A DNA stretch of 64,000 nt from Candidatus Omnitrophota bacterium (GTDB lineage Bacteria > Omnitrophota > Gorgyraeia > Gorgyraeales > Gorgyraeaceae), in the NCBI GenBank assembly GCA_043814965.1, contig JBDRJN010000006.1, positions 7,838-71,837 of the forward strand, read 5' to 3'. Position 1 is the first letter of the stretch, and each line of letters opens with the position of its first letter. Below the pieces are notes generated by a model. It did no database searches, had not been told where the DNA came from, and saw only the letters and a list, made by a program, of their open reading frames with translations. Shown in pieces: positions 6 through 62,447 of this stretch. The position numbers were made by a program, and so were the translations under genes.

Positions 6-3000
6 GTGGAAAAATCAGACAGTTACTTTTCCATACTTGACGGCGGAGAAGAATATGATGATAAGGGAAGAATAACGCAAGATAATAAGATCATAAAATA
101 CGGAAACGGAAAGACGAAAAGTATAAACATAACGTATGTATATAATGGCAATAGCCAAAAAGCTGCCAGGATAATAGGAAATATGATCATCTCGCAGGAC
201 AAAGCAAAAAAGTCCATAGCCATAAGCGACAGGCCTCTGAGCGTAGCGTTCGGCAGAGACGGCAATATAGACTGGTCAACAGCGCGATATGTAGATAACG
301 ACGGCAATCTTACTGACGAAGCTCCTCCGACATCAATATCTGCTACCTTGTATAATAAGAAAGGCAAGCAGGATCTTCCCGAAGCCCCTGTCATAGGCGG
401 AAGCGTAGTTGTCCTGCCTGATAATCAGCGCGTTGTCAGTGAAGACAGCAGGGTATATGCGAATATTATTTCTTTTATCTCTGAAGCTGATAAGTGCAGG
501 GCCAATGATAGAGATAAGATCCTTCCTAATATCCACCAGATAATATCTACCAGGACCAATGTCCCAGCAGGAGAGAATACCTACACTACTACGATCACCT
601 ATACTATATATGACAATAAGGGCAATCCTCTGATAACCGGCAATAAGGATGCATGGAGCAATGCTTCGTGGGCCAGCGAATCAGACAATTATATATTTAA
701 TGGGGACGGGTATACGTATTATAGAAGCGCTTCTTTTATGAGTCCCGAAGATTTCTTAGCAGCCAATCCTGAAGCAACGAGTGGCCAGATAGAGGAAAAC
801 AGAGAAAAATGGGAGGCATTCAAGCAGTCTGAACACGAAGAAGTCTCTAATATGGACAATATAGGTGAAGTCATTATTAGAAAAGACGACCCAGGTAATT
901 TAATATATAGGAAGGTAGACCTTAAAGTGGGCAGTGATGCTGCTAAGTCTATCATACAGGAAGCAGGTAAGGCTGACCCTAAATTTGCAGATAATGTAAA
1001 AGGTGTATCTATCTATGTAGATGCGGAGAATAATATAACCTATCATATATCGGGTGAGAATGATGAGGTTATCGCAATGAGTGTAACGGAAAAGCAAGAA
1101 GATGAAAGCGTAAAGACAGGATGGAGTGACGGCAATAATACCTATATACTGAATGCTGAAAAACATGCTTATGAACTTACAAGGGTCAGTGTATATAACC
1201 CAGATCTACTGCCTAAAGGCGCGAATAAAAGCATAAAGAATTTTGCTGATAGTAACTGGGATAAGACACTCAGTACATTTAAATCTATCAATAAAGATGC
1301 TGCGCATGTCGACGCAGGCCAGATACAAAGGATCACGCTTGTAAAGGACGGAGAATCCTGGGTCGCCCAAGCTGACATCTCAGACGTTGACAACAAGATA
1401 CTGAATGGTTTAAACATAAAAGGCATAGAGTTGAATACGCAGAACATTGTGCGTGCTGTAATGTTTGTAAGTAAGGGCAGAGCAACATCCAATTTTATAG
1501 ATGCGGACGGAAGGATCCTCTATGTCGTGGAGCATAAAGGCGGTAAATATAATCTTATAAGAAGTGTATGTTATAATCCAGAGTTTGAAGGCATGTCAGA
1601 TAAAGCTACAGCTAGACAGAAAAAGGCTGCTCAGGAGAATTGGGATAATCTATTTACAGCTTATGTTGCCAAAAACCCGGGATTTGACGATGCCAAATCA
1701 GGTGACTTAACTGAGATAATGATAGTGAGGTCAGAGGATGGCGATTCATTTGACCTTATAGCAAGCCTGAAAGAAGGCAGTGATGGTTTTAATGCTTCTA
1801 TAGAGAAGTTTAAGAAAGTCGAGAGAATGTTCAGCGATGAGATCTCTGTACCTGATAAGCGCGAAATCAAGACTGTACAAATAAGAAAGACCCAAAAAGG
1901 CAAAAAGACAGATTATGCTTATATTTTCTTGGATGAAAAGGGCGATTTGATAGCAGCAGGCAATGAAAAATACTGGATGACCGCTGGCGCAGAGCATATA
2001 TATGAATACGATGAAACTGCTGAGAAAAAGTATAAACATATTGAGCAGGGTATCATGGATGAGAAGGATAAAGGGAAAAATCCTGAAAAGTGGAACGCCT
2101 TGGTGAATACTGCCATGAAATTCCTCCCAGAGCTCCAAGGCCATACAGCTAACGAGATAGAGCCGCAATTAAAAGAGATCAGATTTATCAGGATCAACGG
2201 AGAATTTTCTAGCTGCAGAGTGACTCTAAAGCAAGGCACTATAGCTGAGAAGATTATAAAGGGTTTTCCGTCTAACTTGACAGAAGGAAAGAAAAATAGC
2301 GTAAAATTCGTAGTCATTCATAGGACTTCGAAAGAAGGATCATTAGCTTATTACCTCTATAATAAGCTTGATAAAGCCCCTATAGGAGTCGAGAACCCTA
2401 ATAAGTGGATAGTAGGCAATAGATTTAACCTGAAAAATGGAAGCGAGGAACATAAAAAGCTAGTAGAGGCATCCAATAAGGATATAGATAATATAAACAA
2501 TTCCAACAAGAAGACGCCTTACGAAGTCTCTTTATCATCTTCCGGAGATAGAAATAAGACTATTCCTAACCTCAAGATAGATGAGGTTAGGATAGAGGGA
2601 GAGATTACAGCGGATAGCAGGGTGATCTATACAATTTATCATAATGATAGTAAGGTTATGGTTGGTTCTCCTGGAGGCCAGTGGAAGATAGGAGATGAGG
2701 CTTTTGTAAAGATAGGCCTATACCCTGAAGAATTCTTAAAGTCTAATCCTGACGCGACAGAAGATGAAATAATGCAAAACAAAACTAAAGGCGTAAAATG
2801 GCAGGATAGGGGCTTATATATAAAGAACTTAAAGGATGGAATAGGGCCGCAGATAAGCAATATGCTGGAAGCAGGCGCAATAGATGAGGAGCGTTTAAAC
2901 TCATTAGGGATCCAGATCAAGAAAGGTGATAAAGATAAGCTAATAGCAGTTAAGTATAAAGAAGGCAGTTGGATCTATCTTGACGATAATGCGTCTCAGT

Positions 3001-6000
3001 TTACTGTCTTCCAGGGTTCAGGTGATGACAAGGCAGAATATGAAATAGATGTTTTAGGCAAGCTGCAGGAAATATTATTTGCAGGCGATATTGAGATGAG
3101 GATGAGATCAGAAAATCTCAAGAAGTATTTTAATAGGTTGGCTGAAATGATCCCTGAATCCGACAAGGATAAAGTCTCTACAGATAATATAGAGATATGC
3201 AAAAGTCATAGCACTACGGTCATTCGTTTTAAACCAAAAGGGAAAGACTGGATACAGCTTACATCGAACCCTGATTTAAAACCTATAGAGTTACTTTCTT
3301 ATCTGGAGAGCATGACTGAGGCAAGAGGAGAATTTTTAATGAACCTACTTGGATTTTTAGTAAAAAAATCCCCGGATGCCTTGCCTGAAGACGTGAAACT
3401 CGTAAAGAAAAATAATACTACGCATATCTATTATAAAGGCATAGACCTTACAGATCCGAAAATAGAACCTACGTTATTACTCTCTTGTTTGGACAGGATA
3501 TTTTTTGGAAATAGATTGGAGAGCTTTTTACCTACTGTAGATGGCAACATAACTGAAAATGAAAAGATACTGCGCATTGACCATGTCCTTCGTTTAGAAG
3601 AAATGACCGAAAAGACAATCCTTGACTCCAAAGACTTCAAAATTGTCTGGCTACGAGGGGATACTAAAGAGACCAAAACAAATGGAAAATGGTACGTTGT
3701 TCCTAAAGGATCTATCTTTTCAGGATCAACTATAACTTTTACCAAATATAAATTAATGCGCGATGAAGAAGTCCCAATCGAGGTCAATTATAATGTAAAT
3801 GATAAAAAACAATATAAATTAGGCGATAAGGTAGTAGACGGAAAAGGAACTTGCTATACTTGTGTTCTTGGCCGAGACAAAAAGAGATACTGGGCTAAGA
3901 CAGATGAAATAGAGAGTGCAACTAAATGGGTAACAAAGAAGATCCTGAATAGTTCAGCGTATGAGATCATTGGCTTAGGAGATAGGGCTTTAATACCAGA
4001 AAAACTTTATGAAAAGATAACTTCTATTAATTGGGGAACACACCTTGATAAAGCAGAATGCCAGGAAGAACAGATAGAGATGTTTGAGGCAATCATAGAG
4101 ATAGTAAAGGAAAAATATGAAGATGCCAAGGCAGCAGCCTATAGGAGCGGAGCAAGTGTAACTTCAGGAGGCTATGTAAGTACAGATCCTGTGGCAAGAA
4201 GAAAAGTAGAAAGAGTTAAAAATTTACTTAATACTTTAACTGGCAGATTAGAACAGATGAAAGGCAGGGAATGGGATGCAAAGAGTAAAAAATGGATAAG
4301 ACGTAAAGATAAAAAATGGCTGCGCTGGGGCGAAGGAAATATAGGATATCAGACCACAACAACCCTGGTCCCGCATCCAGACAAGACTTTGAAAGCTGTA
4401 CGAAAAACCCTAACAGATGAAGAGCTTTTAAGGGAAATAAACGAGGTGACCGAGAATGATGCAGCTGAAGTCCACGGTGAGGGACTTGAGGCTTATGAAG
4501 AATATGTAGTTAAAGGAGTAGATAAGATAAGAGAGGATCTGAACAAGTTGCGTGAATTAAAGAAGGATAATTATAATAAAGGCAAGGCTAAAAAAGAAGC
4601 GCTTGATATGGCTGGCGCTATAGAGGGAGATTTTCAGAACATTAAGACAGCAGGCGCATTGATATATGCTTCCTGTATGAAATATGCGAACATAGAAAGT
4701 ACTTTGACGCAAAACCAGACTATTACCCAGAAGCTGGCAGGAACAGACGCAGGGCTACTTTTTAATTATGGGAAGAAACAGATACAAAGATTAAGAGCTA
4801 TTCAGAAAAATTTAAGAAAATGTATTATATCAATAAAATTAGGCAACATAAATGACGCGTCAGTCCTATATAACAGGACAGTTGGTTTGAACGATGCAAA
4901 CCTTAAAGAGGCGATGAAGGATTTTAGAGCCGCTAAGTTTGTGGCAGGCCTGGTTGACATGGTTATTGAATGGGCTGTTATTGCGCTTTTTACTTGGGGT
5001 GTTGGCAGCGCTCTTAACGGAGTTAAAGCAGCCTTTACAATAGCTGGCAGAAGCCTTGAGAGAACAGGAGAGATCTTAGCGAGATTAAATAAATTAATGC
5101 AGTTAAAGAAGATCGATGCTGCCAGGAAGATAGAGATACTGGCAAAGATCGGTATCAAAGGCAGGCATCTATGGAGATGGAATGCCCTGAATACATTGCT
5201 GGGTTATGGCGGCAGGCTAGGCCTTGTGAATTTCATGAAGACCAGCCTTAAAGCCGCAGTACATTTAGGCGGATTTAACGCAACGCTTGGAGCCATAGTC
5301 ATGCCGCTCATGTTTGGCGCAGGAGACCCGAATGACCCTGGTAGAAGGCATTTACTTCTTTTTTCAGAAGGATTCACCATGGAGGCGCTCCTTGAATACT
5401 TAGAATTCGTAAAAGGCGGAGTACAGTTTGCATTAACAGCTGCTCCGTTCTTTGGGATGGCAGTCCCGGGCGTTGGTATCGGGCTTGGTATAAGGGGTAT
5501 AACCAGAAAGGTAGCTGGCCTCTTAAAAGATAAAATGATAAGATTTTCTTCATGGGTTGGCCGCGCAGGAGATAGGTTGACAAAGATAGTCCTGGCGTTT
5601 AGTGAAGAGGGTGGAGTTGTAAATTTTGTAAGCAAAGGATTTTCACCTGATAAAAGAGGTTATTTGATGGCAGCTCAAGGTACAGGAGGTTTTGCCGGTT
5701 TTATCGGAAAACAAGCTCATATGGTAGATAGCGTATGGACCTTTCATCTTGCTACCCAGCTGGGAGAAACGCTTGGCAGGTTGACCGGTAATGAAACGTT
5801 TGCAAAATTCCTGGGAGCGATCAGCATGTTCCTCGTCCCTACAAGAGTAGCTATGCATAGCGGAGGCATGATCGGTTTCAGGGACGTAAATGGCAAGACC
5901 ATTAAATTTGACAAGATCAAGGATATATCAAAGAGAATAGAAACATCACGCGAACTATTAAAAGCACAGCAAGAAGGCAAGCTGGAAGGCGTTAGCGCCA

Positions 6001-9000
6001 CAGGTAACAGGATGAAGGTTGACGCAAAGGCTGTAAGGGAGCTTATCAATATACATAAAGACGCTACATTAAATAGAGAGGTCGAGCTAAAGACAGGCAA
6101 AAAGATCGACAAGGTAACTGAGGCAGAAAAATTAGAAGCTTTAAATGATATAGCAAAAGACATTGAATCCGAAAATAGGGAAAATTCCCTGGAGCTCTGG
6201 CGTATGGATAAAAATGGCGGTTTAAGATCAATAGATATAAATAGACGCAGTGTTGATATGAGGAACAGGGGATGGACTGCTGAATATATCAATGGCATGG
6301 AGGTCATGGCCAGGAATACGAACTATTTATCTGATGTTGACTTTGCAAAAGAGATCACCATGGAATGGAAGAGCGAATATAATATCTCCAGGCTGGAAAG
6401 TTTCAATTTAAATGATATAGGAATAGCTATTGGAAAAGGCAAGAGTACAGTAGAACTATCTAATGGTGAAAAGATAGAGCTGTCCGCAGGGTTTAAAGAT
6501 GCAGTCAGGGAAAAGATCACTAATGAAAAATGTGAAAATGCATTATTGGAGAGTGTATATGGTAAAGAAAAAGCGCAGGAATTAATAAAAGACCCTTTAA
6601 AAAGAAGCAGCGCATTGCTTGAGCTGTCAAGTAAGAGCCCTGAACTTTTATTGGCAAGCGTAGATAGTGAAGGAAACGTAAAGACAGTGATAGAGTTGGG
6701 GACAATGAAAAAAGGTTTTAAGAAAAGCTACTATAATAATAGATATAGTGCTCTTAGAGAGACTAATTCACCAGCTTCTTTAGCCGGACTTCAAGGAAAA
6801 TCTGAAATAAGCATCTTTATAAAGAAAAGCGCTGTGGGTGAATTAAAGTTATTAAATGAAAGAGTGGCGGATCTAAAAGATAATGTAGGGTCAGCTCAGG
6901 AACAATTAAATACCAGCAGGCGAGCTGAAGCAGGTAACGGCGTGACCCGTACAGGCATAGAGCTTGAGATACAAGTAAGACAGGCAGAGCTTAATGTTGC
7001 AGAGAAGGCATTGGATGTTGCTAGATTAGAAAGGATGGCTTCAAACCGCAGTGAAAAATTGATTGAAGCCAGGAATGTATTTAATGATGCTGTAAGAAAT
7101 TTATCCAGTGCTAAGAATATACAGAGTAACTATGCACATAGGTTTTTAAAGAAATCTTTAAGAGGGGGGAAACCTTGGACTAAAGAGGGCAGGGCTAAAC
7201 GTAGGGAGACTAAACTTTTAGGCGAGGCAGAGGGAGCTCAATCGGCACAAGAAGGGATGGCAGAACTTAAAAAAGATACCTCAAAAAAAGAATTCGTAAA
7301 ATGGCTTAAGAAAGAAAATATCCTTGATCCAGAGTCAAGTCCGGGCGAGGGAATAATAAAAGCTGAAATAGAAAAATGGACTAAGAGGGCCAATGAAACA
7401 AAAAAGGTTTTGAAAGACCCAGAGGCTATAAAGCTCCTAGAGAAAGTAAAATCTGCCAATGCAGAGATCACTGAAAAGATGAAGGGGATAGAGTTCGATT
7501 CATTTAGAGAACCAGCCAAAGAGATAGAGAATCTAAAGGATCAAATAAAGAAACTGGAAAAATCCCCATCTAAGAATTCAAAAGAGCTATTGGCCAAAAA
7601 GAAAGAATTGGTGGAATCAAAACAGAAGGCATTAGACGATGCCATAGGTGTTAAGGTCGCAGAGCTCCATAAAAATATTTTAGAATATAAGAAAAGCAAG
7701 GGTAAAGACTTTTCTGCTGCTGATGCTTATGCATATGCGGATATCGTATTTACAAAACTTGCAGGGATAAATGCAAAAGGCAGTGCATACAGCTTATTCG
7801 GCAGTCAAAGGATGATGCTGGCTGAGTTTTTCGCTGGAAGAAATGCAGGGGTAAGGGCAGGCGGAGGAAAGACTATAACCTTTGTATTGGATCTGGGAGT
7901 GAACAAGCTTTTACTCGGTAAAGAGTTTCAGGGAGAACTTTTATTGGAGAATATAGGTGCAGCCAGAAAATATATATCAGAGACTTTTGGAGAAAATGGA
8001 GTGAACCATGGAAAATTAGCAAAGGCATTTGGTATAGAACTGGTCAATGGCGTGGAGTTATATAAGCAGGAAGGCGGGACAGCGAAATTAATAGAGGCCT
8101 ATAAAAATACCGAAAAAGTCGTACTGATGGAAGCAACTACGAGGGGCCATCTCATGAACCAGGCAGTTACAAATGTAGAGTTGAGGGTGGCTTTAGCCAG
8201 CTCTAATGTTATAAGAGCGGATGAAGTGCATATACAAGTTACTTCAAGGACAGCATCAATAATAGGTAATAATACAATAGGCCCTTCTTCCACGCAGGTG
8301 GATCGCATTGAGAGGCTTTGGAATGAGATTGAAAAAAGCGGCATAACTGAGTCAACCATAAGTCTATCTAAATTTGATAAGAGCGTAGGAGAGATGAATA
8401 ATAGCGGAGGAAAACTTCATTTTGCCAAACTTGGCAGTGAGATAAAAATAAATGAAGCTGCCCATAAATATTTTACTGAGCGTGGTTATAAGACAGGAGA
8501 GCTTCAATCAGTACTTAGGGCCAGGGTTGATGTTGAAGGAAGGTCAGGTTCATATGCAATAACCAAAGACGGAAAGATAGCTCCTGTCAGCCAGTACGGA
8601 GAGGTGGAAGTAAGCCAGATCATGAAAGACGTGAACTACCAGCTGGCGATTGCAAAGAAACATGGCTTGAACGCCTATACTTCTGTAAGGCAGAGTACGA
8701 CTAGCATGCAGACATCTCTATCATATATTTTTGGAAATAAATATGCAAGTATCTGCGGCGCTTCAGCTACAACATCCGGCATAGAGGCGCTTATGCATAG
8801 TAAGATAGGTTCTAAAACAACAGATATAAGCGTTACCAAACTGGACCTATCCTTGTATAATACTGCAAAGACAGGCACAGAAAATGTCTATGGCGATGTT
8901 AAGGCATCATGGAAGAAGTCACTTCAGGCAAAGACAGAGAATGCTTCAAGAAATCTGAAGAATGCTAAAGAAAGGTTAGAGAGCGCAGAAAAAGAACTAG

Positions 9001-12000
9001 AGGCCAATCCAAAAAATAGATCATTAGAGACTAAGATAGAGAACTGGAAGAGGAAGGTTAATGAATTAGAGCAGATGCAAGAAGGCGGAGGCATCTTGAT
9101 AGCTACGAGAGACGTGGCAGGAATAGATCAGGCAAAACTAAAGGAGATAGCCAAAGAGCTGGGCATAGAAGTTGATTTTGAGATCGTAGACGGTAAATTT
9201 GAGGGAGATATGGTAAATGTGACTTCATCTGCCGGTAAGCTCGGGAAGGTGACGATTGTAAATGAAAGAGGAATGACAGGATGTAATTATAAAGGTAGAA
9301 TTGATTTATTTGTAATAGGGGCAGAGAGCATGCCTTCCACTTTATTTGCACAGCTTACACACAGGACCGGGCGAGGCGGAGCGATCACAACGCGTCATTT
9401 ATACATTGAGAGTAAGGCTATAACAGATAACCTGTCTTATGCAAAGACTAAAGAGGCTGAACTGCGCAGTGAAAATATATGGGGCAAAGAAGAAACTAAT
9501 AGTTTCTTAGGGGAAATGGAACGGGGCTTTGATTTTAACTCTTCTAAGGGAGTCAAGGATGCGTTAAAGCGTAATGCTGATTTCTTAGAAGCAATAGAGG
9601 TATCTGAATCAGTGAAGTTCTCTGCGCAGGATATTGCCAGGAACAAATTTGTCATAGAACCTTTAAAGAGGCTCTTGGAAGATCCAAAGATACAGGGCAC
9701 ATCTGCAGAAAAGGTTATAAAGAGAAAATTAGAAGAGGCCTTGAACCAGTCATCTCCATATGCGGATATACTGTTGCAGAAATCTTCTATTCAGGGCAGA
9801 GAGGCCTATACTGAGAATACAGTTAGATCAAGTATAAGAGAAGCTTATGAAGTAATGAGAGATATAGAGGCTAGCGTATCAGGATATGCCAAGACAAAGG
9901 TAGCATCTAACCTTAGCCAAGTCGTTAAATTTTCTAAGCAGGCAAAGGACTTTAGCAGAGTAGAGGCAATAAGTGATAAATCGCTTATGGAGGCGAAGAA
10001 CTTAAAAGAGGTAGCAGCTATTATAAAAGGCCTGTCAGACAAGATATTATCGACTGAAGGAAAGGGCAGCAAGGCCCCTGAAGTAGTAGAGGTCAGAGAA
10101 GCAGAAAAGAGCGTTGAAAAAGCAGTATTAGAGTTAAATCCTAATGCAACTATTGATAGAACAAAACTCAATGAAGCAGCTGGCGCAGTAGCTGAGGTCA
10201 ATAAGACCAGAGGTTCACCATTTACAGCCATACCAGCCTATAGCTCATTCTACGCAACACAGGTAAATAGCTTTATGGCTGATGATACAAAGGAGAACAA
10301 AGTCTACGCAAAAGTGCAGGATATAGCAGCTCAGGTAAATACCCAAGCATACCAGAACTCCTCAGATCAACAAAAAGCCAATATACTCCTAAATATAGTA
10401 CAGGGTGTGAATGAAAAGACAGCAAACCTTGCCCTCGCATACGTGAACCCAGAACTCAATCTAAATACAGTACAAAACTACGCTGTAGAAACTATAGGAG
10501 AGATAACAGATGCTATCATAGATGCTTCACTTGAGAGTGATATTGTTACGCTATCAGGCGATGTGGTAGGCGCTGGCAATGGAATAGGAGTGATTCCCGG
10601 AGGAGTCAGCGGAACAGGCAGGCTCAAAGACCTTATAGGATTTGAAGTAGCTAGCATGGAAGCTGAATTATTACAAGGCAGGCTAGAGACCACTGAAGCT
10701 GAAATAGACGCAGCTTATAGCCAAGATGTTAATGATAAATTAGGTGAGATCATAGAACAGGCAGAGGCTACAAAAACCATGGAAATCGGGGATGCATTTG
10801 ATGAATATGAAGCAACTCTTGACATGGAGATCGTAAAGGGCCAGATCGCAATGGATCTGGAGAAGCAAGATAATAAAGAGCTAGCGTTGAAGAGAGAAGA
10901 CTTGGCCGCAGCCCAGATAGAGCAAGATGAAATATCAGCCCAGCAGGAGTTTGATACTGAAATAACCCAGTCTATGGATGCAGTGGAAGAGACAGTTACG
11001 CGTATAGAAGATATAAAGGCTGAAGAGACAAGGCAGGAGATAAGATCAAGACAAGAAGAAAAGGACCTTAATTCTATAAAGACGCTTATAACAGACGCTA
11101 CGAGTGAAAAAGATCATACTGTTGCGCAGGCAAGGCTCACATTTACAGAACAGGCTATAAAGGCAAGGCTTTCCTCAGGGGATATTTCAGATAATGCAAG
11201 GGCTCAGTTAAATGCGCAGCTAGTAGTTGTAGGTAGCGCAAAGGAAGAGATAGCTTCCCTACAAGCTGAAGAAGAAGCGGCTAAAAAAGAGGAAGTAAGG
11301 GGCATTACTAATATCCTAGGTAATGTAATAAATAATACTATAAATATCATAAATAGTTCAGTAAAGAGATCGCAGGAGGCAAAAAGCCGCGAGGAATATG
11401 TGAATACTTATTCACATATAATAGATGAGGTAGTAAAGCTTTCAAACGGAGGCGATACTAACAATGAGGCTACCTTAGCATTGTTTAATATAATATCAAA
11501 TGGTATCTCTGCTAGATTGGAAGACCTGTCTTTTACTCCTGAGCAGAGACAGGACTTAATGAACCTGGAATCAAAGGTCCAGCTTGCAACGCGATCTATC
11601 AATGAAAACGCCATTAGATGGCAAGGCGTAAGAGAAGAGACGCATGACAGGTTTATATCAGGCCTGCAGGATACTATAAGGAGCATATCTTCTTACAGGG
11701 ACTTTGTGCTCGCTCAGCCTATAATAATGGCCACAAGAAATGCTATCAATATAAGAATTGCATCAAGCGATATCCCTGGAACTGAGAAGAGCCAGCTCAA
11801 TAATTACCTGGTGCTTTTGGATAGCCTGGAATCCCAGATGACCACAGAAGAAAAACTGAGGCAGATCAAGGTTAGAGAGCACAATGAATTTGCAGGGAAT
11901 ATGAAGGGCCTGATAAATCAAGCCTCTACAGCTTTTGCAAAGGGAGAAGAGGCTGTAGGCAATGCAATGTTCACAATGGCGCGCCAGAGCATCAACACAA

Positions 12001-15000
12001 GGCTTTCTTCTCCTACTCTTTCAAATTCAAGCGAACAAAGGGCTGAATTAAGAGGCCTCCTGAGCTTGACAGGCGGCGTACAGGAAGAGATAGAGATAGA
12101 AGAAACCGTTGTTCGAGCTGAAGAAACCGCCACAGCTCAAGATATATTTACACAAAATAAAGTAGTAGTGTTCAATAAAAATACCAATGAGTTTTCTACA
12201 GAGAGAGTGATCAAATTAAGCTCACTTCCAATGCCTGAAATAAGAGAGGCTTTTGCTCAAGCATTGTGGAATCTAGCTAAAAACGCGCCTTCTCATAAAA
12301 TGACATTAGCGAATTATGCGAGTTTCATCACAGGAGACAGGTTAGGCAATAAAGATATATATGCAGTAATAGATGATAAAAACAATGCATTGGCTATTCA
12401 GATAGTTGACTTTGATCCCAGCGATAAGACACAAGTTAGTTTATCTACCTGGATCAGCGCAGATAATATAAGTTTTGCAGGGAATCAGGTGCTTTCCTAT
12501 GCTGTAAACGACCTTTTGGATAAAGGAGTGGCTCAACTTGATTCAAAAGGCGTTTCATATACATCCAGGGTTAGAAATGCATTGCCTTCTGGTATAAACA
12601 ATGTCTCAGAGATGAGGAATCTTGTAAATGAAAACGCAGTAAATTTAGTAACTTCTTTGACAGGCGCAAGCATTAATAATCCTTCAGCAGGCTTAGTATT
12701 GCAGGAAATCACAGGTGTAAGACCTGATGTGTCTACAGAGACAGCTGTATTGGACGATGTAATTGAAAGCGTAGAGGTAAAGATAGAAGATACCTCAGTA
12801 GTAGTGGCAAGTAATGATGCCCTGGAAAATATCATAGATGAATTGGGCTATTCTGCATCAGCTGATGCGATTGTAACAGTACTCACTCCTTATATAAATA
12901 AAGGTACATTTACAGAGAATTTCTTTAAGAATGCCATAACTAACCTCATGCAGCCGATGGATTCAACAGGTATTAACTATACAAACTTAAATGTAGACGA
13001 AAGGGCTGTAATAGCAGGAGTTTTGCCTAGGATCACTTATCAGGATGTAGACGCGGATGGATATATAAATATAACAGTAAAAAGCATTGGCATTGGAGGG
13101 GGGCAAGAGCTTTTCCAAACAGCTGAGTTACTGGTAAACCACCTGGAAGGCCTTGGGATCGGAGAATCAGTCAAAGGAGGCAAGATCAAGATAAGGATCA
13201 GCCTTAATGGATTTGATTATAATCTCCAAGAGATCTCGGGCGCAAAGGAGAATATAGATCAGTTTATCAGCGGACTTCCAGATGTTTGGAAAAGCTCGAT
13301 TGAAACCCATTATACATATATAGATATAAATGACCCATCGACCTATGATGTCATGCTCGATGGCAAGTCAGATCTCTTATTTAATAAGAATACATGGCAT
13401 GCTAGTAACTATAACTGGGATTCTTATAGAGCAAGTAATTTCATAGATCTATTAGAAAGCAATGTTAAAGATGGCGGGTTCGTAAGTATGACCAATCCAT
13501 ATAAACCAGGTACTCCTTTATATGGTTCATTCAGTGATATAGCAGCTCCTTTTAATAGAAGGGCTACAGACTTTAGTTCTCCTTTGACATCGATCTTAAT
13601 GCCTGAAAGGACAGCTACCAGCCTAGAACAGCAAGATATAGAAGTTGCCAGCATGGAGGTTGAACTCGCAGAGTCAAAACAAGATGATATAGACAAAGCC
13701 TGGGATGAAAATACGAGTTATGAGGTTGTAGCAAGTAATATGGGCATGGTAAATAAGGATGAAAAAACTAGCCAAGAAAATGCAGTTTGGGAGCAAAAAG
13801 AAGCGCAATTTAAACTAACAGTTGATCTCGAAACAGCTAAGATGGAAACTGAAGAATTCAACGCCCAGGAAGAAATGGACATAGATAGGCTGGAAAGAGA
13901 TCATGCATCTAGCGCCAGAGAAGAAGAAATCACAGTAGAAGAGTATTTACAAGGGTTACAGAGTGAATTAGATGAAGAAAGAGCCCAATTGGACTATGAA
14001 GAGACATTGGCTCTACAGGATGAAGATTCAAAAGCTGGTGTACAGGAGATCATATCAGCAATAGCAGAGGATATCATAGCACACGACACAGAAGCAGCAT
14101 TAAAAAGAGAACAAGAAGATATAGCAAAGGCAAGGAGAGGTAAGGGAACAGCCAAGAGATCTTCCAAAGGCAAAAAGACATCCGAAGAAGGCGCTGAAGA
14201 GGTAATAGAAAAGACCGAGTACGCGGCTCTTGAAGCTACAGCGCCTCAATCTGATAAAGGCGGAGAGCCTCCTGTCGTAGGCGGAGAGGGCAAAGTAGAT
14301 TCTCAAGAAAAGCCGTCATCTCGTTTTCTGGCTGTAGGCGGAGAATATGCCAAGAATTACAGGCAAGCTGTAAATAATATACCTAACAGTAAATTGAGAA
14401 AAGCAGTGCAGTCAGGCATACAGATGGTATCTTACCATGCTAATAGCCCAATATATAAAGAACAATCTACTGATAAAGAAAGGGCAGTTACTTTGTCAGA
14501 GGCATTGGATGAGATACTTAATGAGCACTATGGAGTTACTGATCTTGAACGCCAAGATGCCGAAGATCGCATATTGAAATACATAAACCCGGAGCTGGGA
14601 TCCAAGGATCTGGAAAATACCATAGGCGAGATCTTTGCAGAAGAGAAAGTAAACACTGAAAAAAGCATCAAAGGCGCCCTAAAGGCATTGAATTCTACCA
14701 AGGTTATAGATAAAAAGAAACTAGAGGCTGCTTCTCAGGCAGTGTTAGAAGCTAATATAACAGGAAATTATATCGCAGGAGTAGAATATTTAGAGCTTTA
14801 CCAAGAATACATAGATTCTATAGAAAATAATGATCTATTAAAAGAGATAGTCAACCAAGGCGCTAGTAACCTTATATATCAAGTAGCAAATTCAAACTAT
14901 GGAGCATTGGATGACCAGGAAAAAAGGATCGTAATAATAGGCGCGGTAGATGAAGTGCTTAATCAATACGAAAACCCGCTACCGACTTTTGTTACTGTAG

Positions 15001-18000
15001 ATGGCGCAGAGCTTGAGCTGTATCAAGAGAAATCTGTTATCATGAGTAACATGGTCAAAGGCCTTGGCCGTGAAAAGATAGCGGATCTTATAATAAAGAC
15101 CATAAATCCAAGTTTAAGTTATAAGCAATTAGCTGGTGACTTGACAGGAGTATATGACTCGGAATATGCGGGAGAAACCAAGCTCTCCAGGTTTGGTATA
15201 TGGGTCAGGAAACATAAGTTACTGACAGGCGCAATATTGCTATTAGGTCTAATAGCTTGCTCACCTTCTCTATATTATTTTGATACAGGAGTAAAATACA
15301 TCCATGACCGTATAGATGGAATCACAGATAAAGACATTGATACAGGAAAAGGATTTTTTGACTCATATGTAGCATGGAAAGACAGTACAGCCAGGATAGA
15401 TGATACTATGATGGAGATAGACAGCGCAATAAGGGCTTTAGGCCCATCCGCAGATAGATCAACTATAAACAACCTGAATGCCCAGAAACAAGAATTAGAA
15501 AGAATGAGAGGATTGGGGCTGAAGGATGCAAACAACAATGACATTTATTATCCTCATAATACAGGCATACCTACCAACACTACTGTAAAAAAGAATGCAA
15601 AAGGACACTGGGAATATCTGGTCAATGGAACACCAGAGCCGTTATCTAGGTATAATATGGCGATCGGTGATGCTCCTGATGATTCATATAAAGACAGATT
15701 CGACGTACTTAATGAGACTCCAAAGATCTTCTGGAGGTCCGGCAAGGGAGAACAGACACCTATAGACATGCTTGATTCAGCAAATGTCGGCACTATAAGG
15801 TTCTATAGGGCTCCTTTGGATACCATAGGTGGAACGCAGTTCTCAGACTTGCTTGAGCAAAATTACAAAGAAACAGGAATGAAGTATATTATTCCTTATG
15901 CAGCGGGTATTGATAAAAAGGGGAACACAGAAAAAGAAAGTAAAAAATTAAAAGGAGATTCATATACAAATATTCTAGAGGCAAGTAAAGCAGCTGATCA
16001 ATACAGTGATGGCGAAGCGCTCTTAAATTACCAGCTTGGCAATGAAGGCAGTTATCGCCTTGAAGGCCAGTCAAAATATGAGCCTTGGTATGATGATACC
16101 TGGGACTTATTCAAGTTTTTCACAGTGCATAATGCTATGGCGGGGGATATACTTGATCAGGAAAAAAGGATTTCAGAGGAGACTGGTAAATTCAGGCACC
16201 ATGAGATCGCAATATCACTGCCTGATATTAAAAGTCATTTTCAATGGGCAGCAGAGATCAACCAGGTCTTCCCATATCTAGTGGACAATGAAGCTGAGGG
16301 GAAGGCCCTTACTCTCAAGCATTACAAAGATAAAGTAAAAGGCCTAGGGGATAGATTTAAGGATATAAAAAATAATACAGAGCTCCCCAGGAAAGTCAAA
16401 GGTCTTGATAAGTTTATAAGTGATATGAAGGTAGCGGGATTAGTAGTAGAAGAATATAAAAATGGCAATGGAAAAGCAAAATACGCTGATTGGATAAAGA
16501 CACAGGATAAGAATGTTTTACAGAAAATATACACGTTACATAGATACCAGAGGACCCTTATAGACCCATACAATCCTTTGATAAAGAGCGCAAAGAAGGA
16601 CTTGATAGATATACAAAATGGCAAAGATAAAGATAAGGCCAGCCGCATGCAGAAAGTACTGGACGCTCTCTATGATAATTTGGAAGCAGAGCGCGCAAAA
16701 CTAGCAAATGTAAACAGCATACCTCAATTAGTAAATGGGCATTATGACGGCAGCTGGATAACAGCGATAAACAACAGCTTGATAAGGCCTCGTTATTTTA
16801 TAGATAATATGACCTATGACCAATTCAGCGATGGTATAGTCGATGAAGGCAAGAGCGTAGAAGTATTTGATTTTCGTTATAACATGAGAATACTTGGAGT
16901 CAACTCTGTACAGCGCGATAAGGCAGGTGTTGCGGCGCTATTTAACGAGACGCCTGATATGCCGGTGATATTGCTTGAAGCTGGGCAGCATAAGAATGCC
17001 ATAGATGTACTTGATCCTAATAGACAATTGGAACTAACAATACAGGTAATAGAAGCAGCAAAGAACAATATGCCTGGTAACGATAAAGGAACTGGAAAAT
17101 GTATAGGCGTATCTCCGTTCTATTTTGATGAATTGTGGAAAGCATTTTCAGAAGAAAACGAGTGGTTTTGTAAATTAGGCCTATTTAATTATGATAATCG
17201 CCGTAAGATGGTCCCAAAGACCGATAATACTATAAATAGGCTTTCCAGATTGTTCCCTGCTCCTAATGTACCTATAACTATAGGAGGGAATAAAGAGCTG
17301 AAAAGACGCGAAAATATGCTGGATCAATTGCTGTCCTCGACAAGCATCGAAGTAAAAGGCCCAGGCACATACAATATAAGCTGGATCAGCGATGGCAAGG
17401 GTGATTGGCAGAGGTTTATGGACAAAGAAGTAGATGATAATTATAAAGAATATCTATCCACTCTCCAGGTTACCCCGACACCTGAAGGAAACATACTCAA
17501 ACATGAAATACCGGATGAAAATATAGGGGCATACAAAGATAAGTATTATACATATCACAGGGATGCATTTATAGAGGGGAGAGGACATCTAAGGATATCC
17601 ACTGCTTATAAGGATAAACAAGGAAATCCAGTCGCTATGGATCAAGGTAGTGACAGGTCATATTTTGCTCCAGGGGGAGGGTATGTTCCTATATGCACCA
17701 GAGATCTGTCAGGAAGGCGCGGAAAGACCTTACTCATCGCTTTTCCAAGAATGGAAGGAAAACGCCTTGTTACGGATACAGTTATGGTACCAAACGTCAT
17801 AAAGACCTATTATGAAGCAGAGAAACCTGATTTTACGACAAATTCCAGATTTTCAGTGGTATATGTACAGAATTGGTTGAGCGAGAGTCAATCACAGCCG
17901 TTCATCTCAATAGATGTCTACAACAATAACGAAGACTTGATATTCCCGGCCTCTATCAGGACCATATATTCTGAATTTGAGGTTATGGCAGGCCAGGAAC

Positions 18001-30000: not shown

Positions 30001-33000
30001 ATGAGGTAGGCGCAGCCTGCTGGGCAATGGCTGCTTCTTATGTACAGTTGGGCGATGAAAAGAGCGCTAAAAAATATATAAAGATACTCATAAAAGATAT
30101 TCCTTATCATCAGATATATGAAGCGAGCGGGCCAGGTTTCTGGAATGCTATCAAATCATGGCACATGATGCCTAATAGTATAGATAGAGAAATGGCCGGG
30201 ATCTATAGAGAAGCCGCAAAAGAAGAAAACATACCTATAAGTATAGTACCTGAAAAAGGCCTTTCCAGCATAAATATAGCTCCTTCAAAGGAAAAGGCTC
30301 AAGGCGCAGGCAGTATAGACAAGATAGAGTCAAAGTCCAGGATAGAAACTATTGCCAATGGTATCAGCGGTTCATGGTCGGGATACGGGTCTAACTCTTC
30401 GTGGGCGGATGGGACATTTGACCTTAAGGATGCAAGGTCCATACGCATAACATTTCCTAAAAACCAGGCAGGCATAAATATATTTGTGAGATTATTAAAA
30501 AATAGGAGCATGGCCCCGAGCGATATAGGCAGAAGTCCAAAGATATACACAATACCTGCCGATGGAGTGGTCGAGATACCTATATCAGATTTTCCTGTCT
30601 CGACAAAAGACCTTGGTAACATAGAGCAGATCTCAGTGCATTCAGGTTCTAATGCCTGGAATAATCCTTTAAAGCAGAGCGAAGGCAGGAAGGCTATGTT
30701 CCAGAAGATAGAGATCATTATAGCTTCAAAAGACAAAGGATATATGCCTATAGAGGGAAAAGATGGTTTTGGCCATGGTTTTCCGATAGAGCTCTTTGGA
30801 TTAGGCCTAAGCGCCTTAGTAGGCATGGTAATCAATAAAAAGAATGACGGAGATACGATATACGAAGATGAAGACATGAAGGTCTCCTCTGAGAGAAGAG
30901 GAAGGCTGTATATCAGCAGTAAATCCAGGAAGATAGACATGGTCTATGATCCTAAGAGGAGTAAAGATAGGCTAAAGATCAGAGGCGCTTACGATGAAAA
31001 CAGCATGGAAGAATTAAGAAAAGATATAACAACTACCATAAAGAAAAAGTCACTTAAACTGCCCTATGGTTTTATGCAGGATATCGGGATAAAGAGTATA
31101 TTGAGCCCGGAAAGAGAACGTCCGTATAAGATAAGGGATAAGTTCAAACAGCTGATAGCATTCTATATGACAGGAAAACTTACAAAGCTAAGTGATGGAT
31201 TTGAGATATATCAAGGTTATTCTATGTTTGTAAGCGGCATAGCATTGCCTCATAGGTTTTCGGACAGTGAGCTGGATTTTCTTATAAAGTCAGTAAACAG
31301 GGGATATGTCTCGGAATATGACCTAAAGAGAAGATTCGGAAATAAAGAAAATTTTAAAGCTATAAAAGAAAAGATGATCTCTTTTACGAATGCGTTATTA
31401 GCTGTAAAGGAACTCAAGAAGAGAATAAAAGGTTCTTATAGTAAAAGCTCTATAGATATGGCTTTTAATGAGCTTTATACAGAGCTTAATAGTGTAAGTG
31501 ATTATAAGATAGACGAACTAGAGAAGAGATGGAAGAGGGTGATGGAAGAGACAGGTATATATGTACCTGAAAGATATAAGGAAAAAGATGATGCCAAAGA
31601 TAAATCTTTTTCAAAGAATAAATTATACTCATCCCTTATAATTCCTTTCCTAATGGTCATCCCGGGACTATCTACAAATGCAAATACCCCTATAGATACA
31701 AAATTACAATACAATCATCATTCCAATACGCAATACGATGTCTACAGAGAATTAGAGATGTTATCTTGGAACCTTTTTGAAGATAAAAATATAGATAGAC
31801 TAATAGAAATAGGCGAACCAGCAATTCCTTATTTACTTAAGGCCTTGCAGAGCGATAAATTATATAGCTCTCAACGTGAGGAGATTATAAAACGCCTTGG
31901 AGAAATAGGCGGTATGGAGTCTATTTCACAGCTGATCAATTTATTAAAGACTAAAGAATACCTTGTGCCTGAGCTTTCCGCAAAAGCTCTTATTAAGATA
32001 GCTGAAAGAAACTCTATAGATATGGCTAATCTTTATGGAGATAAAATAACAAGTCTTATATTAGCTAATTTGGAAAAATGGGATGAGCTAGCTAGCAAGA
32101 TGGGCCCCAGAGCAGTGGCTGGTTTAATGGAATATATTGATTATTATAAGATGTCCGAAAATAGCATAGAAACCTTGTCTAAAATACAGACTCCAGAAGC
32201 GATCTCTTATCTTGTAGACAATCTTTCTAGTGCAGCTAATGACAGAAAGATCATGATAATCAAGACTTTTGATAAAACAAAGGCAAATACTCCTCAGGTA
32301 ATTGAGGCATTAACAAAAGAGTTAAAAAATATAGATCTAAAGGTACGGATAGAGTCAAGTATTGCGCTTTATAATTTAGGAAATAATAGAGGATTACTCA
32401 CTCTGATAAAAGATATAAATAGTAATTTTGAAACTATATCTAATGATACAACTTTGTTGAGAAGGATGCCTTTACCTATTAAAAAACAACTTGCTTCTAG
32501 ATTTGCAAATTCCTTAGGCAAAGGCAAGTTTGATTTTTATCATTCTGGTGCCATCTGGCAGGAGTCATCTAATATTTCAGGTTTAGTTGCGATTGGAGAT
32601 GCAGCTATACCTTATCTAGTACCATTGTTAGATAGTCCTATTGCGCAGAAGAGAAAAAATGCAGTTATGGCATTAAGCAGCATAGGGATAAAAAATAAAG
32701 ATATTGCAGATAAGATAAATTCATTATTATTAAATGACCCTGATTATGAAGTCTGGCTTCAGTCTGGAAAGGCTTTGGTTAAAACTGCACGCATATACTT
32801 ACCGAGTTGGGAAAAAGATTTTTCAATGAATAAATTAATAGGACTTTTTAGTCAAATGGACTATCCGGAGCGTAAGTATGGAAAAGAAAATATCTTACAT
32901 TCTATTATTCAATGTTCAAATTTAGAAGGTCCTATAGGGGTATACGGAGATTTTGATTATCCTGAAGAAGCATCAGCTTTATTACATAAAATCAAAGAAC

Positions 33001-36000
33001 TAGGAGAACCAGCAATAAACTTTTTAATAGACGCTTTACCTGTGTATTTTTATCAAGGTTCTTATAGTGATAATTATTATCCTGCAGAACGATTATTACG
33101 ATTTATATTGCATGGGAATTCTCTGAGATTGTACAAGGCGTTACGCGAACCGCTTTATGAGAATACCCAGAGAGCAATGTCTCTTCGCGTGAAAAGGGAT
33201 CTAATGATAATAGATATACTGAAACAATCAGGAGCTGATGGTTTTTCAGGTTTTAAACTTAATGTTGGTAATTATAATGACCTATTCGATGATAACCCAA
33301 AGATCAGAAATGAAGCATATAAAATCCTTAATAAGGAAGGGTCTGCTAGAGAGTTAGTAAGGATCAGTAGGTTATTTAATAAATTAAGAGACGAAGAGGC
33401 AGCAATAAAGGACCAGGAAATAATAAATAATACAAAGGAAGGAAAACTAAATGCCTGGCGTATACGAGAAGCTATCAATAGGATCGGTAAAAATAACGCA
33501 ATTAGTTATTTAATGACAGGATTCAGTAAAGTTAAGACTATTGAATATGCGAGATCGATCACAGAGTTGGATACTGTTAAAGGAATGAATAGTTTAAGCC
33601 AACTTTTAGACAGTGATAAGTTTAATACTGGTTTTGAAGCCTCGAAGACATTATTAGAAATATCCAAAAAAGATTCTTTAGACCTTACTTCTTTTTTAAG
33701 TAAAGACAGGATGGAGAAGTTAAATACTTATAAACTGGTAAATGGTTATGATTGGTATAAGAAATTAGATAGCCTTGGTCAACCTACGATCTCTAACCTA
33801 AAGAAGATGTTGCAGTTAGATGTAGATACAGAAAACAGAATTAAGATCCTCATTGCTTTAATAAATAGAGGGGACAAGGAATTATTGCCTGACGTATCTG
33901 ATATTATAGAGAACCATGAAAATAGTGATATAAGGTATAGAGCAGCTAATATACTTGGAGATACAAGTAGTTATTGGGCTGAAGATGTTCTTTCGAATAG
34001 TTTAAAAAAAGAGAAAGATGTTAGGGTCAGGAGATCATTAATAGAATCTCTAGGTACGCTGAAATCTAAAAAAGCGTTTAGTTACTTAATAGAGCTAGTC
34101 AAAAAAGAAAATGAAGATATAGATATAAGAAAAGCAGCTATTAAAGCTGTTTCAGATATAGGCTACAAACCCCCTGAATTAGTAGATATCTTAATAAATA
34201 AACTAAGTGATTATTCACTTAAAGAAGATATTTTTGAAGCTATTGGAGCGTTAAAGATTCAAGAGGCAGTCCCGCATTTAATAGATATGATAGAAAAAGA
34301 GATGGATAAGGACAGCCATAATTTTGAATTAATCAATAAAGCGGCAAAGCCATTAGGAGATATAGGGAATAAAGATGCCCTGCCTATATTAATTGACCTA
34401 TTGGATATAGAGAAGAACGGAGTCTTAGAGACAGCAGTTGAGGCAATAGCAAAAATTGGCCCACCGGAAGACATGATAGATGACCTTATAGATCTATTTG
34501 AATTTAGAGAAATGAACGAAGATAAAAAAAGCCCTTACGATCCTTCATCCTATTACAGTACAACATTATGGGGGAATATTAGAAACGCCTTAGTAAAGAT
34601 AGGAAAACCTGCGCTTCCTTCATTGTTAGAGGCTTTTGCAGATGAGGATATACATGAAGAGAGAGGGTATTTTAGTGGGGATAGGGTCAGTGATTATATC
34701 AAACAAGCTGTTTCCGAGATCGAGAATGTTTCTTTAGACACAGATAGGAAGCTGGTTGACTATCTAAAATCAAAATTAAGATCTACTGATTCTGATATAA
34801 GAGATTATGCCTCAGATGTCTTAGAATTGCCTTATTTAGCTAGGATAGTGAGAGAAGATGAATATAATGAGACGCTTGATTCTATGGAGTCAAAGAAGAT
34901 CAGTGATCATGATGGTGCTATTGATGACTTGATCGATATTTTAAAGTTTAAAGAAGGCAGTAATGCGCTTCATGAAAGAGCAGTAAAACTACTTGTTAAA
35001 ATAGGAAAATCCGCAATACCTGAACTATTCGAGCTTCTTACGGATGAAGACGCAGTAGATAGTAGATATGTCAAAGAAGCTTTTTCTAAGATCGAGAACA
35101 TCTCTTTAGAGACTGATGAAGAATTAACCAGCTACTTAGAATCAAAGCTTAGATCCGATAACTCTAAAATCGTAAAAAATGTCTTAAAGGTACTTGATAA
35201 GATCTCACCTGACTCAAAAGTTGCAGCTAAATTCAAAAAAGAACGCACTGATCTATTCCTGAAATGGCTTGGTATCGCAGTTATCGCAGGCGCAGTATTA
35301 ACTGTACTAACTGCTGCATGGAGGGCGTGGCGCCAGGTAATGAAGGAACGCGCTGACAATGATCCTGCAGTAGCCTCTAATACTAAAAAGTCAATATTCA
35401 GCAGGATTTATTCTAAGATCAAGGATAAATTTACATTGTTTACGCTTATAAGTACTTTTTTAGTCATACCTAATCTATCTACAGGCATTTTTGCGCAGAT
35501 GCCGCAAGGGTGGAAACCGATATCTGAATATAATTATGATGAAGAAAGGCGAGTATATAGGAATAGAGCTTACTTAAAGATGCTTAATTATATTTCAGAA
35601 AATGGGATAAAAGAAAAAACCCATGAAGAATTAAGCCGCTTGGTTTATTTAGCAGACTCTTGTGTCTTGGAAAGAGAGAATGAAGAGAATACAAGAAAAT
35701 TAACAAGACATGGAGACCTTGCAGTTGTTGCTTTAGTGGAAGCTGTCAGATATTTACCTCTTCCATGGAGTGAAGATGGAAGGGCGGTATATTGGCAGAA
35801 GCGGTATATAAAAGAGGCTATTAAAAAAATAGGTAGTCGTTCAATACCTGCATTAGTATACGAAGTGAATGATGCTGATACTGCTATATATTTATTTGCG
35901 TTGGGTGTGCTTGGTGAATTAAAAAATGCTGGATCAGCTGTCGAACTTGCAAAATTAATAAATTCAGATAAATTCGAGGATGGAACTATAAAGATGCAGG

Positions 36001-57370: not shown

Positions 57371-57396
57371 CGGGTTACGGGTTACGGGGTACGGGT
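57371..57396 (+). repeat. G-tract repeat 'CGGGTTACGGGTTACGGGGTACGGGT' (G3N4G3N4G4N3G3: canonical G-quadruplex-forming pattern) filling the whole SBP-permease intergenic gap
   Basis: Read directly; 69% GC in an otherwise AT-rich context, abutting the ATG at 57397. Confidence 0.8.
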
Positions 57397-58287: not shown

Positions 58288-58365
58288 ATAGTCATGATAT
58301 CAAAAATCAAAGATTAAAATGCAAAATTATAGATTAAAATTCAAAAATAAAAAAGAGAGAAATTA

Positions 58366-59214: not shown

Positions 59215-59216
59215 CG

Positions 59217-59235
59217 CCTGCCTGCCGCAGGCAGG
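59217..59235 (+). terminator. GC-rich perfect hairpin (9-bp arms 'cctgcctgc' / 'gcaggcagg') directly after the permease stop; no U-tract
   Basis: 59217-59225 is the reverse complement of 59227-59235. Followed by G-tracts rather than T-run, so terminator function is uncertain. Confidence 0.3.
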
Positions 59236-59307
59236 GGGTACAGGGTACGGGAAATGGAGTAGAGATGGCTGATTACGGGTTACGGGTTACGGGGTACGGG
59301 GTACGGG
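59234..59307 (+). repeat. Second cluster of GGGTTAC/GGGGTAC G-tract repeats (G-quadruplex-type), flanking and overlapping the start of the glycoside hydrolase gene
   Basis: 'GGGGGTACAGGGTACGGG' 59234-59251 and 'CGGGTTACGGGTTACGGGGTACGGGGTACGGG' 59276-59307. Same unit as 57371-57396. Confidence 0.8.
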
Positions 59308-61613: not shown

Positions 61614-61699
61614 TGGAAGGAGGTGTGTTCTAAATATCAAAAATTAAATATAAAAATCAAAAATGAGAAAAGAAACATGAACCAGAAAGGAGTGGTAGT

Positions 61700-62377: not shown

Positions 62378-62384
62378 TTTAAAA

Positions 62385-62425
62385 GATGGGATTTTGGCAT
62401 GGGTGACCCATGCCAAAATCCCATC
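62385..62425 (+). promoter_or_regulatory. Perfect 20-bp inverted repeat 'GATGGGATTTTGGCATGGGT g ACCCATGCCAAAATCCCATC' (operator-like palindrome or strong terminator hairpin)
   Basis: Arms 62385-62404 and 62406-62425 are exact reverse complements. Located in the 70-nt gap between the lipoprotein stop (62377) and the next GH gene start (62448); only a weak 'cttt' follows. Confidence 0.5.
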
Positions 62426-62447
62426 ACAACTTTATGGAAAGTGAGAT

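Follow-up and report, generated by a model that had tools for sequence, protein, structure and literature searches.

SecA motors and the SecA-like domains of giant proteins

SecA is a free-standing protein of ~800–950 amino acid residues (aa). A membrane-binding helix lies at its N-terminus, and in many species its C-terminal tail is Cys-rich and binds zinc. Canonical SecA needs its scaffold domain, wing domain and two-helix finger to engage SecY. In the present study, a SecA-like module of ~730 aa was analyzed in a 64,000-nt stretch of a Candidatus Omnitrophota bacterium (assembly GCA_043814965.1, contig JBDRJN010000006.1, positions 7,838–71,837 of the forward strand), which is referred to below as the window. 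Based on profile comparisons and structural models, the module appears to belong, as a highly divergent member, to the family of SecA motors; it is embedded in an Omnitrophota giant membrane protein and is not a free-standing SecA.

SecA_DEAD and preprotein-binding domains have been reported in giant proteins (10,000 to >100,000 aa) of Omnitrophota and of some Actinobacteria (10.1101/2023.11.21.568195). Divergent SecA DEAD and preprotein-binding domains without scaffold and wing were reported in 2023 for “most” of the full-length Omnitrophota giant genes (10.1101/2023.11.21.568195), and export of the giant protein itself was proposed as the role of its SecA-like domains (West-Roberts et al., bioRxiv 10.1101/2023.11.21.568195). 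A 20-protein architecture cluster with PF07517 was also described among 916 long proteins (2026 preprint, 10.64898/2026.06.07.730766). Given that the 2023 and 2026 preprints report such domains, a SecA-like domain in a giant protein is of a kind already known. The module of the window shares with these published domains the phylum, a giant protein with many transmembrane (TM) segments and with HEAT and AAA_5 domains beside a carbohydrate import operon, a motor with an insert resembling the preprotein cross-linking domain (PPXD) of SecA, the lack of a detectable scaffold or wing, and the proposed role. The published domains were found by searches with hidden Markov models (HMMs; PF07517 in the 2026 preprint), whereas the module of the window had no Pfam or NCBIfam SecA match, and it should therefore be either more divergent or a separate clade. 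It also differs by a DEVH instead of a DEVD motif, by a conserved helical tail, and by relatives in Firestonebacteria and Elusimicrobiota.

Compared with canonical SecA (E. coli SecA; PDB 2FSF, 3DIN, 5EUL and 1TF2), which gave the best structural match, the module shares, in the same order, the Q motif, Walker A and B, the “RTxxIIxG” motif, the position of the PPXD and motifs III–VI. In contrast to the free-standing protein of ~900 aa, it is part of a protein of >18,500 aa; it has no detectable scaffold, wing or zinc-binding C-terminal tail, its second nucleotide-binding domain (NBD2) is compact, it has an extra helical hairpin, its counterpart of R509 is a Thr, and it fails all SecA HMMs. SecA2 (M. 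tuberculosis, 4UAQ; C. difficile, 6SXH/6T4H) is free-standing, recognisable by HMMs, and keeps the scaffold helix and the two-helix finger, none of which holds for the module. The DEAD-box/DExH helicases of superfamily 2 (SF2; RhlE, DDX10, MDA5/LGP2) scored much lower than SecA in the hhalign controls and in Foldseek, have no PPXD-like insert, and lack the SecA-type “RTxxIIxG” and “GMTxTA” motifs. The module was excluded from SecA proper because the curated models fail on it, because it is not free-standing, and because no scaffold or wing could be demonstrated; it nevertheless appears to work like, and to descend from, the SecA motor.

Extent and conservation of the module

The whole SecA-like module is located at nt 7704–9902 of the plus strand and corresponds to residues 2568–3300 of the giant protein (counted from nt 3). 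The residues of the analyzed segment are numbered below so that residue s starts at nt 7686 + 3(s − 1). Two RecA-like nucleotide-binding domains (NBD1 and NBD2) make up the module together with a PPXD-like insert in NBD1, a variable helical hairpin and a helical tail of ~160 aa. An original prediction, made by eye from the sequence, had placed a SecA-like motor at nt 7800–9415 (aa ~2,600–3,140); this interval does cover the motor, and the conserved module is wider. The family HMM (34 sequences) matched the giant protein once, at aa 2568–3300, and the giant protein showed neither a second SecA-like copy nor an internal repeat of the module.

When 1.84 billion cluster representatives were searched exhaustively with HMMER, 64 homologous representatives were retrieved, 51 of them with E ≤ 1e-10. 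Nearly all were long fragments of giant proteins (1,000–7,195 aa), with homology extending over ~720 residues. When the giant protein was cut into chunks and compared with the 64 homologues, the module was the only shared part and the flanks were not conserved; the module thus stands out as a strongly conserved stretch amid sequence that cannot otherwise be recognised. In the family alignment A1 (13 sequences, 24–31% identity to the window segment), the residues Q41, G61-K62-T63, H155, N158, D179-E180-x-H182, T343, G358, T362, G532, Q556, R560, R563, F645 and N687 were invariant. These positions represent the Q motif, Walker A, the DExH Walker B and motifs III, V and VI of an SF2 ATPase, and the module is under strong purifying selection.

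One cluster representative of 120 aa was 100% identical to the window, over nt 9003–9170 (aa 3001–3056) only, and presumably represents a piece of this gene in a different, fragmented assembly.

Scans with a four-sequence alignment yielded four genome loci and one metagenome locus. Genome and metagenome scans with the single module sequence gave no match, and neither did a word-indexed protein search with the segment or the family alignment as the query. Four relatives in species-representative genomes (L014, L015, L016 and L017; module at 10001 to ~12300 in each) were located inside giant ORFs (open reading frames), of which >3,400–5,200 aa were visible. Their hosts are metagenome-assembled genomes (MAGs), one of Candidatus Firestonebacteria, one of Elusimicrobiota and two that are unclassified, and their GC content is 50–61% compared with 40% in the window. 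The giant ORF of L015 and that of L017 stop 3–3.7 kb past the module and the next long ORF (>1,100 and >2,000 aa) directly follows, so the architecture downstream of the module is not conserved; no Pfam domain was found in the scanned parts of these two giant ORFs. A SecA-like match in Embleya was an ORF of 720 aa and not a giant one.

The homologues with a complete N-terminus (P0004, P0005, P0010, P0020, P0022 and P0027) start with a hydrophobic helix at positions ~7–37, and in these the module lies 1,700–5,100 residues downstream of the start. Several homologues, like the window protein (aa 1646–1671, nt 4938–5015), also have a hydrophobic segment that precedes the module by ~800–1,050 aa. 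In neither the window protein nor the homologues did a hydrophobic segment occur inside the module.

Motor motifs of NBD1 and NBD2

The N-terminal part of NBD1 (RecA-like domain 1; nt 7728–8270, plus strand) contains the Q motif, Walker A, the “TRGHLMN” motif and Walker B. The Q motif and Walker A (“FGSQRMML...RAGGGKT”, nt 7797–7874, residues 38–63) align with Q87 and G107-K108-T109 of SecA, and “TRGHLMN” occupies nt 8139–8159 (residues 152–158). Walker B and its SecA-type continuation, ADEVHIQVTSRTASIIG (nt 8217–8267, residues 178–194), read “DEVH” followed by “SRTASIIG” (nt 8220–8267), and D179-E180 aligns with D209-E210 of SecA. When this N-terminal segment alone was compared with SecA by hhalign, an E value of 6e-5 was obtained. 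The C-terminal part of NBD1 (nt 8700–8870, plus strand) contains motif III and the invariant T343, G358 and T362. Motif III, “CGASATT” (nt 8754–8774, residues 357–363), is the counterpart of “GMTGTA” in SecA, and in some homologues it reads “LGMTATA”, which is almost the SecA motif. At the matching SecA columns this part gave an hhalign E value of 1.6e-3.

NBD1 and NBD2 are separated by a lineage-variable, K/E-rich helical hairpin that resembles a coiled coil (nt 8874–9077, plus strand, residues 397–464). Its helices were placed at residues 397–440 and 445–464 in the AlphaFold2 model, and its columns are variable in A1. The compact NBD2 (RecA-like domain 2; nt 9078–9410, plus strand) carries motifs IV, V and VI, and its comparison alone with SecA gave an hhalign E value of 2.2e-5. 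The strand of motif IV is “GILIAT” (nt 9090–9107, residues 469–474). Motif V is VTIVNERGMTGCNY (nt 9249–9290, residues 522–535), the counterpart of SecA VTIATNMAGRGTDI, with the family-conserved pattern “IxNERGxTGxD”, and motif VI is FAQLTHRTGRGG (nt 9345–9380, residues 554–565). G532, Q556, R560 and R563 align with G510, Q570, R574 and R577 of SecA. The AlphaFold2 model was of low confidence for residues 465–537, which form part of NBD2.

Among the by-eye alignments of the original prediction, those of the Q motif with Walker A and of FAQLTHRTGRGG...RHLYIES (nt 9345–9413, motif VI and the following strand) held, while the assignment of motif V did not. The sequence taken for motif V, ILIATRDVAGID, is actually the strand and helix of motif IV (from nt 9090), is equivalent to SecA PVLVGTISIEKSEL and is variable in the family alignment; this candidate was ruled out, given that the family-conserved motif V is VTIVNERGMTGCNY.

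With respect to the catalytic set of SecA (K108, D209/E210, R509 and R574/R577), five of the six residues are kept in the module, and K62, D179-E180, R560 and R563 are invariant in the family. A degenerate Walker B, as had been supposed, was ruled out by the invariance of “DEVH” (D179-E180-x-H182) in the 13 homologues. The further suggestion of a regulatory or inactive motor was likewise disfavored, since the residues for ATP binding and hydrolysis (the Walker A Lys, DExH and both arginines of motif VI) are kept invariant across divergent homologues at ~25–31% identity.

The insertion within NBD1

The insertion domain of ~143 aa (nt 8271–8699, plus strand, residues 196–338) is located at the same insertion point as the PPXD of SecA, between the Walker B/“IISG” region and motif III. 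The ~410-aa gap that had been read as a PPXD-containing NBD1 appears to hold a PPXD-like insertion at the SecA position. Within the insert, “YAITKDGK” (nt 8553–8576) is the equivalent of “DYIVKDGE” in SecA, and the fuller “YAITKDGK...PV...G” resembles “DYIVKDGE..IVDE.TGR”. When the insert alone was aligned to the PPXD columns of SecA using 34 sequences, hhalign gave an E value of 9e-4, and the insert together with motif III gave 1.4e-6. A separate AlphaFold model of the insert reached a pLDDT (predicted local distance difference test) of 83. In the Foldseek search of this model against the PDB, the best match was SecA2 6t4h (E 0.07, probability 0.91, query TM-score [TMq] 0.47). This entry and five others, all SecA, were the only full-length matches, and the TMq of non-SecA matches was ≤0.21. 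The alignment position, the profile scores and the model thus give moderate, specific support to the insert as a predicted PPXD-like domain.

Profile and fold comparisons with SecA and other helicases

The SecA/SecA2 alignment A2 comprised the E. coli sequence and eleven diverse SecA/SecA2 genes (12 sequences). The hhalign comparison of A1 with A2 gave a probability of 97.3% and an E value of 2.3e-11 over 467 columns, aligning segment residues 19–566 with residues 69–582 of E. coli SecA; the alignment runs from the Q motif to motif VI and includes the NBD1 insertion. When 34 full-length family segments were used against A2, the probability increased to 98.5% and the E value fell to 3.5e-15. 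As a control, the family profile was compared with single E. coli proteins, and SecA scored 55.8 (E 5e-6, 277 columns), RhlE 33.7 (E 2e-3), the DEAH protein HrpB 23.1 (E 0.09) and UvrB 21.7 (E 0.12). A greedy hhalign run (mact 0.05) was uninformative.

The AlphaFold2 model of the module, built on A1, had a pLDDT of 70.5 and a pTM (predicted TM-score) of 0.63. In the Foldseek search against the PDB, ranks 1–24 were all SecA or SecA2 (E 5.6e-14 to 3.9e-8, 656–913 alignment columns), and the first match outside SecA was MDA5 (E 1.4e-6). The identity to SecA in the structural alignments was ~14%. When the family HMMER profile was searched against 177,635 PDB sequences, two Thermotoga SecA chains came first, at an E value that was not significant (0.57). 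Against E. coli SecA the family HMM scored 3.5 bits, and the three matching regions were colinear and correctly placed. According to these profile, PDB and fold comparisons, SecA appears to be closer to the module than the other SF2 helicases are. The proposal of a SecA-like SF2 motor was therefore borne out by profile–profile alignment (E 2.3e-11 and 3.5e-15) and by Foldseek (best SecA E 5.6e-14). The Pfam and HHpred-type searches suggested with that proposal had a split outcome: Pfam found no SecA for the module, and the profile–profile comparison did.

The C-terminal helical tail

NBD2 is followed by a conserved, all-helical C-terminal extension of ~160 aa (nt 9411–9890, plus strand), in which conservation reaches to segment residue ~735. 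Its helices were modeled by AlphaFold2 at residues 620–664, 673–687 and 705–730. The tail, in which the first of these helices is 45 residues long, includes VKFSAQDIARNKFVIEPLKRLL (nt 9612–9677), shows the conserved pattern “F..QDTLR.K.VI.PLK” with the invariant F645 and N687, and contains no cysteine over nt 9411–9890. Its best local match in SecA was to the start of the scaffold helix (“ESRNFDIRK”), which was not significant (E 0.2–0.4). Where the original prediction had advised looking for the scaffold and wing domains downstream of the motor, none was detectable by sequence, and this conserved helical tail was found instead. The tail may be a cryptic scaffold-like domain or, alternatively, a new one.

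The host gene and its surroundings

A single ORF of the plus strand (frame 3) fills nearly the whole window and hosts the SecA-like module. It extends from nt 3 to 55586 and encodes at least 18,527 aa, all 18,527 codons being free of stops. Since its left end is open at the border of the window, the true N-terminus of the giant protein may lie upstream of nt 1. About 20 hydrophobic windows of 19 residues, by which TM-like segments were called in a crude hydropathy analysis, are spread along the ORF, with none inside the SecA-like module; the multiple TM clusters noticed earlier were thus seen again as many hydrophobic, TM-like segments.

With Pfam at E ≤ 0.01, no domain was found in the first ~10,000 residues of the giant protein (nt 3–30002). 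Its distal third contains HEAT repeats (32601–37139), an HD_4 domain of the RelA/SpoT type (49146–49562), a proline dehydrogenase domain (51381–52343), which was a strong match (E 2e-64), and a GNAT domain (54699–54962). The region 37734–47672 carries an AAA_5 array (aa ~12,578–15,145), which comprises at least six modules of the midasin/dynein type with AAA_lid_7 and MDN1_4th lids; the AAA modules share 33–42% mutual identity. A VWA/MIDAS domain at nt 47274–47672 follows the array. Together these form a midasin (Rea1)-like ring-plus-MIDAS architecture in the same polypeptide as the SecA-like motor.

A unit of ~135 aa is duplicated within the giant protein (34935–35348 and 37203–37604, 59% identical) and includes a TM-like helix, LFLKWLGIAVIAGAVLTVL in one copy and IFLKWLGIAVIAGAILTVL in the other. 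The coding strand is purine-rich over the whole giant ORF (window 1–56000), with a GC skew of +0.14 to +0.30 and an AT skew of +0.07 to +0.30. Five antisense ORFs of 184–213 aa (e.g., 30299–30940) are probably spurious.

Directly downstream of the giant gene (56045–63662), genes for a sugar-type ABC importer and glycoside-hydrolase-like (GH) genes were found. This operon encodes a solute-binding protein (SBP), two permeases, a GH2-like protein with TPR, an unknown protein of 225 aa, and a GH. The product of the SBP gene (56045–57370) and NCBI MFH1478642.1, a protein encoded in a MAG of a Candidatus Omnitrophota bacterium, are 100% identical, and among the 120 SBP matches listed, all the named ones came from Omnitrophota. 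The sugar-uptake/GH operon is syntenic in the Omnitrophota MAG GCA_018814825.1 (at 1128–8643 of the locus retrieved, L021). The contig of that MAG ends 1.1 kb upstream of the SBP gene, and a giant gene might lie there.

Proposed mechanism and alternative explanations

Taken on sequence profiles and models, the module is very probably a SecA-family motor with a PPXD-like insert. Such a module would be an active ATPase in the cytoplasm, since it lacks any hydrophobic segment and requires ATP, and it would grip polypeptide, not nucleic acid. It is located ~2,570 aa from the left window edge, with ~15,200 residues and almost every TM-like segment of the window still to follow, and because of this position it would fold early in a very long translation. 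The module would then help to drive extracytoplasmic parts that come later in its own polypeptide (or in partners) into or across the membrane, probably via SecYEG; SecY is not encoded in the window. This function of translocation in cis is offered tentatively and may well prove wrong, whereas identity and function, when judged together, are marginally favored.

In its most elaborate form, which is unlikely as a whole, the proposal describes a built-in, cis-acting motor of an HMM-invisible SecA lineage. The module would fold early in the ~20-minute translation of a protein of >18,500 aa, its cryptic scaffold-like tail would dock SecYEG, and the module would thread those extracytoplasmic segments that come later in its chain. 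A self-contained translocation-type machine had been raised as a possibility by the original prediction as well. Together with the midasin-like AAA+ ring it would constitute a self-servicing multi-motor machine, of a lineage found in the giants of Omnitrophota, Firestonebacteria and Elusimicrobiota.

Several results weigh against the assignment to the SecA family. When Pfam was searched with the module segment at E ≤ 10, neither SecA nor a helicase was found, only noise (Phage_min_cap2, 0.16). PF07517, PF01043 and PF07516 were absent at E ≤ 1 in 13 family members, in which the NCBIfam SecA models also had no match at E ≤ 1, and a home-made SecA HMM did not match the module. The insert, accordingly, had no PF01043 match and the tail no PF07516 match by either of the Pfam searches. 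No member of the 64-homologue family was recognised by a SecA HMM (Pfam on 13 members; home-made HMM). The insert alone gave an hhalign E value of 0.45 when 13 sequences were used, and the Foldseek E values of the isolated insert were weak (0.07–3 for SecA2/SecA). The scaffold domain, wing domain and two-helix finger were undetectable by sequence (hhalign, E 0.2–0.4). At the position of R509 in motif V of SecA, a Thr is found throughout the family (“NERGxTGxD”), with an Arg three residues upstream; this appears from the alignment to be the only divergent catalytic position in the module family. Finally, the matches obtained in the homologues were to generic helicase families: DEAD in 4 of 13 (best E 4.8e-4), ResIII in 2 (best E 1.2e-5) and Helicase_C in 1, all of the sub-threshold type.

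These generic matches would suit an ordinary DExH/DEAD-type nucleic-acid helicase or translocase of SF2 with a lineage-specific insertion, whose likeness to SecA would reflect the shared RecA-like core. Such an identity is improbable: RhlE, HrpB and UvrB all scored below SecA in the controls, and the module carries the insert at the PPXD position and the SecA-type motifs that these helicases lack. Chance resemblance, or a decayed and inactive relic that now serves as a spacer in a fast-evolving giant protein, would fit the single-sequence searches. A phmmer search of the module segment against all PDB sequences returned nothing relevant, BLASTP against E. coli SecA gave only short colinear fragments (best E 0.31), and the Smith–Waterman comparison with E. 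coli SecA was no better than with shuffled sequences at default gaps (z −0.3; 3.3 with soft gaps). The low modeling confidence of parts of NBD2 would fit as well. However, 64 homologous clusters keep invariant catalytic residues at ~25–31% identity, the module is the only conserved island between flanks diverged beyond recognition, and the profile–profile E values are as low as 3.5e-15, so that chance or decay is very improbable.

The main alternative accepts the origin from SecA and concerns the function. The module could be derived from SecA but have lost its use of SecY, acting as an ATP-driven clamp for polypeptides, a chaperone or a switch. It would assist the folding, assembly, processing or regulation of other parts of the giant protein or of its partners, and no chains would be moved across the membrane. 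The lack of a detectable helical scaffold, wing or two-helix finger, the replacement of the R509-equivalent arginine and a conserved helical tail that is peculiar to the family and shows no sequence relationship to SecA are in line with this explanation. Moreover, the module is not tethered beside a membrane segment, the nearest hydrophobic segments being located ~900 aa upstream and ~1,770 aa downstream of it, and a remodelling-type motor, the midasin-like AAA+ array, occurs in the same polypeptide. On the other side stands the position of the module ahead of nearly all TM-like segments, from which the translocating motor was proposed, and a clamp, chaperone or switch of this kind is considered rather unlikely.

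Implications for giant proteins

For the synthesis, insertion and export of polypeptides that are tens of thousands of residues long and cross the membrane many times, a dedicated SecA-type motor in the giant protein itself is the leading, already published hypothesis. The present case differs from the published domains by a module that is invisible to SecA HMMs, its DExH Walker B combined with a substituted R509, its own conserved helical tail, and relatives outside Omnitrophota, where they are present in giant ORFs of other phyla. Given that conservation over thousands of residues is confined to the module, it can be argued that the motor would be functionally essential. The family alignment could seed an HMM for finding the whole family. 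Such motors can be too divergent for Pfam and NCBIfam; catalogues based on PF07517 would therefore undercount them, and giants listed as “SecA-less” may carry one.

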